Assembly (NCBI RefSeq): GCF_030013205.1
Contig: NZ_CP122648.1
Strand: one strand, 5' to 3'
Origin: Escherichia coli
GTDB lineage: Bacteria; Pseudomonadota; Gammaproteobacteria; Enterobacterales; Enterobacteriaceae
Length of the DNA: 64,000 nucleotides
Under the pieces are notes generated by a model. The model was not told where the DNA came from, searched no databases, and worked only from the letters and a program-made list of their open reading frames with translations. Shown here one piece after another: positions 12,873 through 15,275 of the stretch. The position numbers and the translations under genes are program-made. How positions within the stretch are numbered: position 1 is the stretch's first letter; each line of letters begins with the position of its first letter.

Positions 12873-15275
12873 ATGAGTAAAGTCTTTATTTGCGCCGCCA
12901 TTCCGGACGAACAGGCAATAAAGGAAGAAGGGGCAGTTGCTGTAGCCACTGCCATTGAAGCCGGTGACGAACGCCGCGCCCGTGCCAAATTTACCTGGCA
13001 ATTCCTGGAGCAATATCCGGCTGCTCAGGACTGCGCTTATAAATTTCTTGTCTGCGAGGATAAACCCGGCATGCCCCGCCCTGCTATCGACTCCTGGGAT
13101 ACCGAGTATATGCAGGAAAACCGCTGGGATGAGGGATCGTCTTCCTTTGTCCCGGTCGAACCAGAGCCGAATACAGAAATTGTTAACTTTAATCAGTTAT
13201 CCGACGACAAACAGGCCGCTGTTCTCGTTAAGTTTGGCGCACATGAAAACGTCACCGTGGATATGGTCATCAACGCAAGCGGTCTTCTTGGCGATGACGA
13301 CATGATGACCTTTGACGGACACCTCGCAGAGGCAATTATCCGGACTAAAGAAATTAACGCCATGTATCCGGAACGTCAGATTGAATACATCAACGATGCC
13401 AGACGTGATTTAAAACCAACCGCCAAATGGCCCGACGTTCAGGCATATTTTCTCGACCGTAAAAAACGCCAGGAAAAGGAGCGCAAAGAAGGTGGTGCAT
13501 ATACTTCTGTTGTTGATCTCGCCCGCGCCAAAGTTAACCGGCAGAACACTGAAAACTCAGCAGGAAAAATCAACCCCACCACTGCAGCCATTCGTCGCGA
13601 ATACAAGCAGACATGGAAAACGCTGGATGAAGAACTGGCCTACGCTCTGTGGCCTGGCGATATTAATGCCGGAAACATTGACGGCAGCATCCATCGCTGG
13701 GCAAAAAATGAAGTTATCGACAAAGATCGCGAAGACTGGAAGCGCATTTCCGCATCAATGCGCAAACAACCCGATGCCGTTCGCTACGACCGTCAGACTA
13801 TTTTTGGCCTTGTCCGTGAGCGTCCGATCGACATTCACAAAGATCCCGTAGCACTGAACAAATACATCACTGAATACCTGACTACCAAGGGCGTGTTTGA
13901 AGATGACGAAGGAACAAATCAGGGCACAGCTGGTACTCTCCCGTCGCCAGTACCAGAAACTGATGCAGTGGAAACGGCAATGCCGGACAACGAAAAAACC
14001 GAATGCGAAGTGGAAGACGAACCATCTGTAGAGCGTGAGGGACCGTTCTACTTCCTTTTCACCGATAAGGACGGCGAAAAATACGGTCGCGCAAACAAAC
14101 TTTCTGGTCTGGAAAAAGCACTGGCCCTGGGAGCTACGGAAATCACAAAAGAGGAATACTTCGCACGTAAAAACGGCACGTACTCAGGTTCACAACAAAA
14201 TACTGGTGCATCTGACACGATCGCACAACCAGAGCCGGTAAAAGTTACCGCTGACGAAGTAAACAAAATTATGCAGGCAGCCAATATCAGCCAGCCTGAC
14301 GCCGATAAGTTGCTTGCTGTATCACGTGGTGAATTTGTTGCAGGGATTAGCGACCCGAATGATCCGAAATGGGTGAAGGGGATTGAAACCCGCGATTCAG
14401 TGAATCAGAACCAGCAAGAAACGGAACAGAACGACCAGAAAGCGGAAAAAGTCTGCACCGCCTGCGGTCAGACCGGCGGCGGCAACTGCCCTGATTGTGG
14501 TGCGGTGATGGGCAACGCAACATACCAGGAAACATTCGATGAAGAGAATCAGGTTGAAGTTCAGGAAAATGATCCGGAGGAAATGGAAGGCGCTGAACAT
14601 CCACACAAGGAGAATGCTGGCAGCGCTCAGGACCACGCCAGCGATAATGAAACTGGCGAGACGGCAGATCCCTTAATTGCGGTGAACGGTCATCACGTTA
14701 TCACATCCACCAGCAGAGTGTGGACTCACCTGTCGGTCGACCTTGAAACGATGGGAACAAATCCTGATGCACCAATCAACTCTATTGGCGGTAAATTCTT
14801 TGACCCGGCAACCGGAGAGATGGGGCCGGAATTCAGCAAAGCTATCGATCTGGAAACATCTGGCGGAATCATCGACCGGAAAACAATAAAGTGGTGGGCG
14901 AAGCGATCACGCGAAGCGCAATCTGCCATTTTTACCGATGAAATCCCGTTAGATGACGCTCTACTGCAATTACGGGAATTTATCAACGAAAACTCCGGCG
15001 AAAGCTTTGTCCAGATCTGGGGAAATGGAGCCAACTTCGACAATGTGATTTTACGCCGTTCATATGAACGGCAGGGGATCCCCTGCCCGTGGCGTTACTA
15101 CAACGATCGCGATGTGCGCACAATTGTTGAACTGGGAAATTCCATTGGCTTTGATGTCAGAATGGCTATTCCATTCGAAGGTGTACCCCACAATGCACTT
15201 GATGATGCACGTCACCAGGCAAAACAAGTTTCAGCAATCTGGCAAAAACTGATCCCGAGTCAGGCTGATTTTTAA
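12873..15275 (+). CDS. YdfE/RecE-like phage exonuclease, full length (800 aa) with C-terminal DEDD-type 3'-5' exonuclease motifs
   Basis: C-terminal VDLETMG, NGANFDN and HNALDDA motifs in DnaQ-like order; central acidic linker; segment DKLLAVSRGEFVAGISDPNDPKW resembles RecE as I recall it. Confidence 0.65.
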   Translation: MSKVFICAAIPDEQAIKEEGAVAVATAIEAGDERRARAKFTWQFLEQYPAAQDCAYKFLVCEDKPGMPRPAIDSWDTEYMQENRWDEGSSSFVPVEPEPNTEIVNFNQLSDDKQAAVLVKFGAHENVTVDMVINASGLLGDDDMMTFDGHLAEAIIRTKEINAMYPERQIEYINDARRDLKPTAKWPDVQAYFLDRKKRQEKERKEGGAYTSVVDLARAKVNRQNTENSAGKINPTTAAIRREYKQTWKTLDEELAYALWPGDINAGNIDGSIHRWAKNEVIDKDREDWKRISASMRKQPDAVRYDRQTIFGLVRERPIDIHKDPVALNKYITEYLTTKGVFEDDEGTNQGTAGTLPSPVPETDAVETAMPDNEKTECEVEDEPSVEREGPFYFLFTDKDGEKYGRANKLSGLEKALALGATEITKEEYFARKNGTYSGSQQNTGASDTIAQPEPVKVTADEVNKIMQAANISQPDADKLLAVSRGEFVAGISDPNDPKWVKGIETRDSVNQNQQETEQNDQKAEKVCTACGQTGGGNCPDCGAVMGNATYQETFDEENQVEVQENDPEEMEGAEHPHKENAGSAQDHASDNETGETADPLIAVNGHHVITSTSRVWTHLSVDLETMGTNPDAPINSIGGKFFDPATGEMGPEFSKAIDLETSGGIIDRKTIKWWAKRSREAQSAIFTDEIPLDDALLQLREFINENSGESFVQIWGNGANFDNVILRRSYERQGIPCPWRYYNDRDVRTIVELGNSIGFDVRMAIPFEGVPHNALDDARHQAKQVSAIWQKLIPSQADF

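Follow-up and report, generated by a model that had tools for sequence, protein, structure and literature searches.

What does a prophage protein do that shares a segment with the recombination nuclease RecE, ends in a nuclease domain of another type and is encoded without a recT gene? We addressed this question for a gene of Escherichia coli lying at positions 12873–15275 of a 64,000-nucleotide stretch of contig NZ_CP122648.1 (assembly GCF_030013205.1), hereafter called the window. A first-pass annotation had described its 800-residue product as a full-length YdfE-like exonuclease with an intact C-terminal DEDD motif set and an acidic linker, longer than the truncated copy in K-12 and without a recT-like partner before the excisionase gene.

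Our results confirm that observation and support its interpretation. We consider it likely that the gene is the intact ydfE of a lambdoid early-left operon, and that its product combines a modular scaffold, a RecE-like zinc-ribbon segment and a DEDDh 3'-5' exonuclease of the DexA/Rv2179c type; it would not be a recombinase of the RecET/Red type. The object is an ordinary, already catalogued one. It was known at the level of sequence annotation, since RefSeq holds the identical protein, PHROGs places the full length in phrog_2082 ("exonuclease"), and all three folded regions fall within Pfam families.

The C-terminal exonuclease domain

The domain search that the first-pass annotation had proposed placed the C-terminus in a nuclease family, PF16473, and not in a non-nuclease family. 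Residues 618–790 matched the entire model (positions 1–177 of 177) with 207.9 bits against a cutoff of 27 (E = 1.3e-61), and this was the only match of the 800-residue protein in our local Pfam search. The motif set was complete, with Exo I as DxE (D623/E625), Exo II as D723 and Exo III as Hx4D (H773/D778). The five residues D623, E625, D723, H773 and D778 align with D7, E9, D119, H186 and D191 of T4 DexA.

An AlphaFold2 model was built from 150 sequences (mean predicted local distance difference test score, pLDDT, 78.8), and the exonuclease domain was predicted with pLDDT above 90. The best Foldseek match for residues 618–800 was T4 DexA (8KEN/8KEL, E ~3e-9), with RNase T and Orn/REXO2 next; DexA and these proteins were all matched at a probability of 1.00, with template modelling scores (target) of 0.63–0.72. 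As modelled, the C-terminal domain has the RNase H-like alpha/beta fold of DEDD exonucleases, and within the DEDDh superfamily its sequence places it in the DexA/Rv2179c branch (PF16473). The reading of the protein as an exonuclease with an intact C-terminal motif set is thus upheld by the family match, the five DEDDh residues and the structural likeness to DexA, RNase T and Orn. The most likely activity, judging from the conservation of residues and fold, is 3'-to-5' exonucleolysis. Through two-metal-ion catalysis with D623, E625, D723 and D778, and with H773 as the general base, the domain would shorten nucleic acid strands from free 3'-OH ends.

Homologues of this domain also occur as free-standing proteins of ~180–240 residues. 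Of 111 aligned sequences, 96 have a methionine where the window protein has residue 621; because the free-standing homologues begin there, a whole exonuclease gene appears to have been fused to the scaffold. One free-standing Rv2179c-like exonuclease, P0166 (184 residues; L095 5001–5555 and L096 1197–1751), is 51% identical to residues 619–791. Its gene lies at the outer prophage edge beside lysis and structural genes, a moron-like position unlike that of the fused form in the early operon.

Scaffold, RecE-like segment and nuclease modules

The N-terminal part identifies the gene. K-12 ydfE (b1577) of the Qin prophage is an annotated pseudogene overlapped by IS2E and insD7. The window protein is 69% identical to K-12 YdfE over residues 1–257, and window positions 11891–13642 are 76% identical to Qin DNA in an alignment that ends exactly at the IS2E junction. 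Both prophages have the identical order dicA, ydfA/B, dicF, dicB, ydfD, ydfE and int. On the basis of this protein identity, the DNA alignment up to IS2E and the shared gene order, we regard the 800-residue gene as intact ydfE. The database protein identical to ours (P0001) carries precomputed Pfam matches to PF27430 (YdfE_N) and PF27432 (YdfE_C); the assignment of both domains rests on that annotation, and their names come from the annotation of related proteins. Together with the identity and the synteny, these matches bear out the label "YdfE-like", and the contrast drawn earlier between a full-length gene and a K-12 counterpart cut short by an insertion sequence (IS) was correct.

The AlphaFold2 model contained four confident folded units (residues 1–208, 240–345, 390–440 and 618–800), and disordered stretches at residues 348–385, 440–460, 502–524 and 549–612. 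The acidic linker noted in the first pass proved to be two linkers, both rich in Asp and Glu and predicted to be disordered (pLDDT below 50). Residues 345–395 consist of 27% D/E and 4% K/R, and residues 505–617 of ~21% D/E and 3–5% K/R. The zinc-ribbon cysteines form a CxxC-x7-CxxC pattern. The small domain at residues 390–440 is without a RecE counterpart, and the alignment with RecE has a gap there. The domains are listed with the neighbouring features in the Table.

Likeness to RecE was considerable. BLASTP aligned residues 280–603 with RecE 294–592, and the last ~140 aligned residues, which include the RGEFVxGISDPNDPKW motif, the zinc ribbon and the acidic tail, were ~80% identical; at the DNA level, nucleotides 1431–1805 of the gene were 79% identical to recE. 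This likeness, the partial match to the NCBIfam model PRK09709, the position of recE in the equivalent slot of the Rac prophage and the label "exodeoxyribonuclease VIII" on the gene in phages Tritos, PhiR42_1 and vB_EcoS would all fit a RecE-type exonuclease VIII, a recombination enzyme that resects the ends of double-stranded DNA. However, the homology ends at residue 603, just before the catalytic domain of RecE. The PDB sequence search gave no match to the RecE nuclease structure 3H4R, the Pfam search gave no match to the RecE N-terminus (PF06630), and the RecE equivalog model NF007259 (PRK09709) scored 253 bits against a cutoff of 1269, with only residues 449–603 matching well. Since the protein failed all three tests, we conclude that it is not exonuclease VIII. 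Moreover, a DEDDh domain with the predicted 3'-5' polarity would not leave the 3' tails that a single-strand annealing protein (SSAP) needs. A RecE-type role is therefore very improbable and, at the level of membership, already largely refuted.

The absence of an annealing partner points the same way. The exonuclease stop codon is separated from the start of xis by only 64 nt, which agrees with the earlier remark that no recT lies between them. No SSAP was annotated in the prophage part of the window, and Pfam scans of its unannotated ORFs found none. We extended the survey to 80 IMG/VR prophage loci with intact relatives (80–100% identity), in which no RecT, Bet or Erf-type partner was found, as was the case at the locus itself. 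K-12 RecT, a second RecT and the lambda proteins Bet, Exo and Gam, used as tblastn queries on these 80 loci, returned nothing. Between the stop codon and the end of the prophage lay a median of 1421 nt, leaving room only for xis and int. Among the recurrent plus-strand ORF clusters between the repressor and the exonuclease gene, Pfam gave only Rha or nothing for those otherwise unaccounted for. The isolated phages Tritos and vB_EcoS-689R5 have the same arrangement, again without recT. The missing recT is thus the rule for the YdfE plus DEDDh architecture and not a peculiarity of this locus. Because the predicted polarity is opposite to that of RecE and lambda Exo and no SSAP is present, the protein would not be expected to work as a two-component (SynExo) recombinase of the RecET/Red type.

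Our search of representatives of 1.84 billion proteins yielded 10,799 matches, 183 of them at E ≤ 1e-30, and from these a mosaic family emerged. YdfE_N and YdfE_C are joined to a DEDDh domain in the window protein, P0121 and P0123; to a PD-(D/E)XK nuclease in P0140 and, by phmmer, in P0152; to a further tail of ~330 residues in P0148, P0150, P0158, P0174 and P0218 (loci L011 and others); and to a tail of its own of ~250 residues in P0131 (L008–L010; phrog_26058, of unknown function). The RecE N-terminus (PF06630) is joined to a DEDDh domain in P0124, P0126 and P0139. A phmmer search for RecE-type tails on YdfE_N proteins found only P0140 and P0152. The gene of P0140 overlaps a RecT gene (PF03837, E = 2e-36) downstream of it, and after P0124, the one context examined among the three RecE-N proteins, xis and int come directly. 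The type of nuclease tracked the presence of RecT in these two contexts, which are single examples and not a census.

Neither the ~330-residue tail class nor the tail of P0131 had a Pfam or PDB sequence match. Only PHROGs labels the ~330-residue class "exonuclease" (phrog_7838); we considered it as a cryptic RecE-type nuclease, but hhalign against RecE_C gave a probability below 1%, so that no likeness to RecE is detectable. A Sipho_Gp157 gene follows P0148, and P0131 belongs to an ompW-adjacent prophage without recT.

These architectures allow a broader and tentative idea, to which we give little credence. The YdfE_N/YdfE_C scaffold and the RecE N-terminus might be interchangeable targeting scaffolds for nuclease modules of opposite polarity (DEDDh, 3'-5'; PD-(D/E)XK, 5'-3'; and at least one further tail class). 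The DEDDh version, without an annealing protein in every context examined, would then have an undescribed function, such as destruction of nucleic acid in host immunity, exclusion of modified-DNA or RNA phages, or SSAP-independent processing of ends.

Selection and prophage setting

Is the gene maintained for a function, or is it a relic? Pairwise Nei–Gojobori comparison with 79 relatives gave an overall ratio of nonsynonymous to synonymous substitution rates (dN/dS) of 0.27, with 0.56–0.75 in the acidic linkers and the values for folded parts listed in the Table. The folded domains are under purifying selection. Over 81 close relatives, the catalytic residues were kept in 78–81 sequences and the zinc-ribbon cysteines in 79–81. 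D623N was found in three of the 81 and E625K in one (IMG/VR L013–L092), with the frame intact at 800–830 residues; these relatives may be catalytically dead variants. The full-length frame was kept in all 80 of the 80 best IMG/VR relatives, and Tritos, HannyBb and mEp460 are examples of isolated, plaque-forming phages in which the gene occurs. Of 5426 complete E. coli genomes, 3264 had a copy with at least 80% coverage and 4799 (~88%) had any match at all, at a median of 2 and a maximum of 10 places per genome.

The pseudogene in K-12 and the many fragments in the databases would suit an inert prophage remnant without current function. The selection analysis already contradicts this reading: the frame is intact throughout the best relatives, dN/dS falls to 0.05 in folded parts, the catalytic and zinc-binding residues are conserved, and plaque-forming phages carry the gene. 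We regard a remnant as scarcely credible.

The window is 100% identical to chromosomes of swine enterotoxigenic and Shiga toxin-producing E. coli (ETEC/STEC) O139:H1. In the RefSeq record of one such strain, K_EC180 (L001), the gene encodes the identical protein WP_000048589.1 under the name "exonuclease"; the coordinates of neighbouring genes were taken from this record and converted by −1128. The local order is dicC/dicA, DUF1391 (ydfA), ydfB, a hypothetical gene, a DicF-like RNA, dicB, DUF1482 (ydfD), exonuclease, xis, int and ompW, and a Shine–Dalgarno sequence (GAGG) stands 10 nt 5' of the exonuclease start codon. The gene is a member of the early-left operon of an Stx2e-type lambdoid prophage beside ompW. 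A scan for promoters and terminators in and around the gene found nothing over the shuffled expectation (promoters: 2 sites against 4.2 expected).

Table. Domains of the 800-residue exonuclease and neighbouring features of the window (positions in the window; residues of the exonuclease).
Feature	Residues	Position	Strand	dN/dS	Remarks
Complete exonuclease ORF (YdfE-type)	1–800	12873..15275	+	0.27	ATG, 800 residues + stop; six-frame ORF list
N-terminal folded domain YdfE_N	1–208	12873..13496	+	0.30	opens with a small beta-alpha-beta unit
Helical domain, probably main part of YdfE_C	248–345	13614..13907	+	0.07	weakly alignable to RecE 294–353
Acidic disordered linker 1	346–389	13908..14039	+	0.75	pLDDT ~30
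Small beta-hairpin/helix domain	390–440	14040..14192	+	0.05	GPFYF...GRANK...EEYxARK; pLDDT >90
RecE-shared segment	441–527	14193..14453	+		includes RGEFVxGISDPNDPKW
C4 zinc ribbon	528–542	14454..14498	+		C528, C531, C539, C542; also in RecE; weak DZR match
Acidic disordered linker 2	543–617	14499..14723	+		common with RecE up to residue ~603
DEDDh exonuclease domain (predicted 3'-5')	618–800	14724..15272	+	0.18	PF16473, Rv2179c/DexA-like
IS481-family transposase gene		5188–6261	+		between hokD and replication genes
SIR2-family gene		6590–7549	-		between hokD and replication genes
ORF in ydfC slot		11074–11634	+		186 residues
Convergent ORF		11591–11998	-		135 residues; overlaps 3' end of the 186-residue ORF
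DicF-like match		12160–12210	+		full-length, sub-threshold; 32.5 bits, gathering score 48; E = 7e-5
STnc100-like match		12222–12376	+		33.7 bits, gathering score 47
dicB		12399–12596	+		upstream operon neighbour
ydfD-like DUF1482 gene		12587–12781	+		upstream operon neighbour, between dicB and exonuclease
GC-rich imperfect hairpin		15287–15319	+		GGTCGTCGCCCAC...GTGGCGGCGACC; between exonuclease stop and xis start
Excisionase gene (xis)		15340–15588	+		downstream neighbour
Integrase gene (int)		15566–16696	+		downstream neighbour, then ompW

Positions 1–16696 of the window form the early half of a lambdoid prophage integrated beside ompW, which also encodes a Q antiterminator, RusA, DUF968/HNH, hokD, replication genes and the DicA/DicC immunity region. 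Immediately upstream of window position 1, K_EC180 has the gene for Stx2e subunit A and three tRNA genes. Since the stx2e genes adjoin the window start in this matching genome, the prophage is an Stx2e-converting prophage of swine O139:H1 strains.

The SIR2 protein, whose gene lies beside that of the transposase, had weak PADLOC matches to the Aga_SIR2, PDC-S21 and SIR2 models (E = 4e-6 to 4e-4), and its gene may be a defence moron. The ORF in the ydfC slot had only PHROGs matches of unknown function; its first 50–60 residues (MEFKDLP...RNVRDAFTGLY) are kept in related prophages, and its C-terminal part occurs in at least three unrelated versions. Positions 11074–11998 look like a hypervariable slot. 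No Rfam family reached its gathering threshold in 9500–17000, and the region of the DicF-like and STnc100-like matches (12160–12376) aligns with K-12 Qin at only 76%. The DicF-like small RNA (sRNA) lies ~700 nt upstream of the exonuclease gene in the same transcription unit. The hairpin downstream of the gene has no T-run behind it, and the 76 nt around it (15270–15345) fold with −24.3 kcal/mol (z = −1.8 against shuffles).

Candidate roles and known relatives

We propose the following course of events. Transcription of the gene, together with dicB and ydfD, would run in the direction of xis and int. A DicA-type repressor presumably silences the operon in the lysogen, as its position, synteny and what is known of K-12 Qin suggest, and induction would switch it on. 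In the product, the conserved N-terminal scaffold of YdfE_N and YdfE_C (~440 residues) would be linked to the DEDDh domain by the RecE-like segment with its C4 zinc ribbon and an acidic disordered tether on either side. The scaffold and the zinc ribbon probably deliver or regulate the nuclease.

Several points weigh against this proposal. The substrate preference of DexA is not transferable because the identity is only ~23%, and PF16473 is named after an exoribonuclease. Catalysis is perhaps not always required, given the D623N and E625K relatives. Control by a DicA-type repressor is argued from synteny, and our literature search gave no functional or biochemical study of the window protein or any full-length relative.

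One alternative is a prophage-borne anti-phage nuclease that protects the lysogen, either like HREX/EcD, acting on hydroxymethyl-cytosine or otherwise modified phage DNA, or like the ISG20-like TONDO proteins, acting on the 3' ends of RNA phages. T4 DexA, the closest solved structure, degrades DNA in the 3'-5' direction and as a dimer cuts DNA containing 5-hydroxymethylcytosine (5hmC), its bacterial homologues are commonest in Escherichia, and the free-standing E. coli homologue EcD protects against T4 (PMC12153337). TONDO proteins are ISG20-like DEDDh exonucleases on prophages and plasmids that block RNA phages, often with auxiliary domains (PMC13344964, preprint), and the same prophage as our gene carries a SIR2 gene. 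In contrast, W152 and D169 of DexA, the residues reported to read 5hmC, correspond to Y743 and S757 here, and the tetramer residue D90, which is lost in EcD, is kept as D695; in this alignment, at ~23% identity and with a gap in the D169 region, no HREX signature is evident. No PADLOC-DB 2.0 family matched the protein at E ≤ 0.001. The gene also lies within a repressor-controlled early-left operon and not at a moron position with its own promoter; this position and the lack of an evident promoter make a defence role in the lysogen less likely. As to TONDO membership, we rejected it, since that family was selected as ISG20-like from a different DEDDh branch, its members are not in PF16473 and have fewer than 500 residues, and the likeness is conceptual only. 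Overall, we judge the defence alternative rather unlikely.

Slightly less likely still is a 3'-5' exoribonuclease like Rv2179c, active on RNA at prophage induction, for example in the trimming or turnover of dicBF-type polycistronic RNA or of host RNAs. The Pfam family was defined on an exoribonuclease, many copies carry the name "3'-5' exoribonuclease" at NCBI, the fold matches to RNase T, Orn and REXO2 are strong, and the DicF-like sRNA is encoded upstream in the same unit. However, the nearest solved structure, DexA, is a DNA exonuclease, and the module stands in for the DNase domain of RecE-like proteins, joined to a zinc ribbon of RecE type. We thus favor the reading of an intact ydfE product with a 3'-5' exonuclease of DexA/Rv2179c type.

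The main benefit of this work is better annotation, as the gene goes under differing labels ("exonuclease", "exodeoxyribonuclease VIII" and "3'-5' exoribonuclease"). A DEDDh domain in place of the RecE nuclease, without recT, warns against counting the gene as a RecET system in surveys of recombineering or prophage function. The scientific interest is modest; it lies in the biology of a very abundant prophage nuclease and in the meaning of module swapping on RecE/YdfE scaffolds, and the defence by EcD against T4 could make the abundant fused version informative to study.

Among known systems, K-12 YdfE is the ortholog of the N-terminal part of the window protein, and its gene likewise follows dicB and ydfD in the operon and precedes int. 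IS2E cuts it at about codon 257, so that it is without YdfE_C, the zinc ribbon and the exonuclease domain, whereas the window copy is complete. RecE of the Rac prophage occupies the same early-left slot, and its residues 440–592 share the RGEFVxGISDPNDPKW motif, the C4 zinc ribbon and an acidic tether with residues ~450–603 of the window protein. RecE differs in its N-terminus (PF06630 instead of YdfE_N), in its PD-(D/E)XK nuclease, which acts 5'-3' (3H4R) where the DEDDh domain is predicted to act 3'-5', and in having a RecT partner gene where the window protein has none.

The relatives of the nuclease domain complete the comparison. Rv2179c of Mycobacterium tuberculosis, the founder of PF16473 and reportedly a single-domain exoribonuclease (Abendroth et al. 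2014, J Biol Chem), shares the Pfam family with the window domain over the full 177-position model; the PDB sequence search with the window protein gave no Rv2179c match at E ≤ 0.01. EcTon, a TONDO protein, is plasmid-borne and has its catalytic Asp at position 191. EcD/"HREX" (HAK9828821.1; PMC12153337) comes from E. coli and belongs to the DexA-like family, as does the window domain; it is free-standing, its cloning primer starting at MIDTET, and lacks the D90 equivalent that the window protein retains. No MIDTET... protein was present among the 270 proteins compared, and a 20-mer from the EcD reverse primer had one match, to an unrelated GC-rich viral contig. T4 DexA (exonuclease A; 8KEL/8KEN) ranked first for residues 618–800 in both the structural and the PDB sequence search, and has the same catalytic pentad in the same PF16473-type branch of DEDDh enzymes; it differs as a free-standing protein of 227 residues with extra loops and ~23% identity to the window domain.

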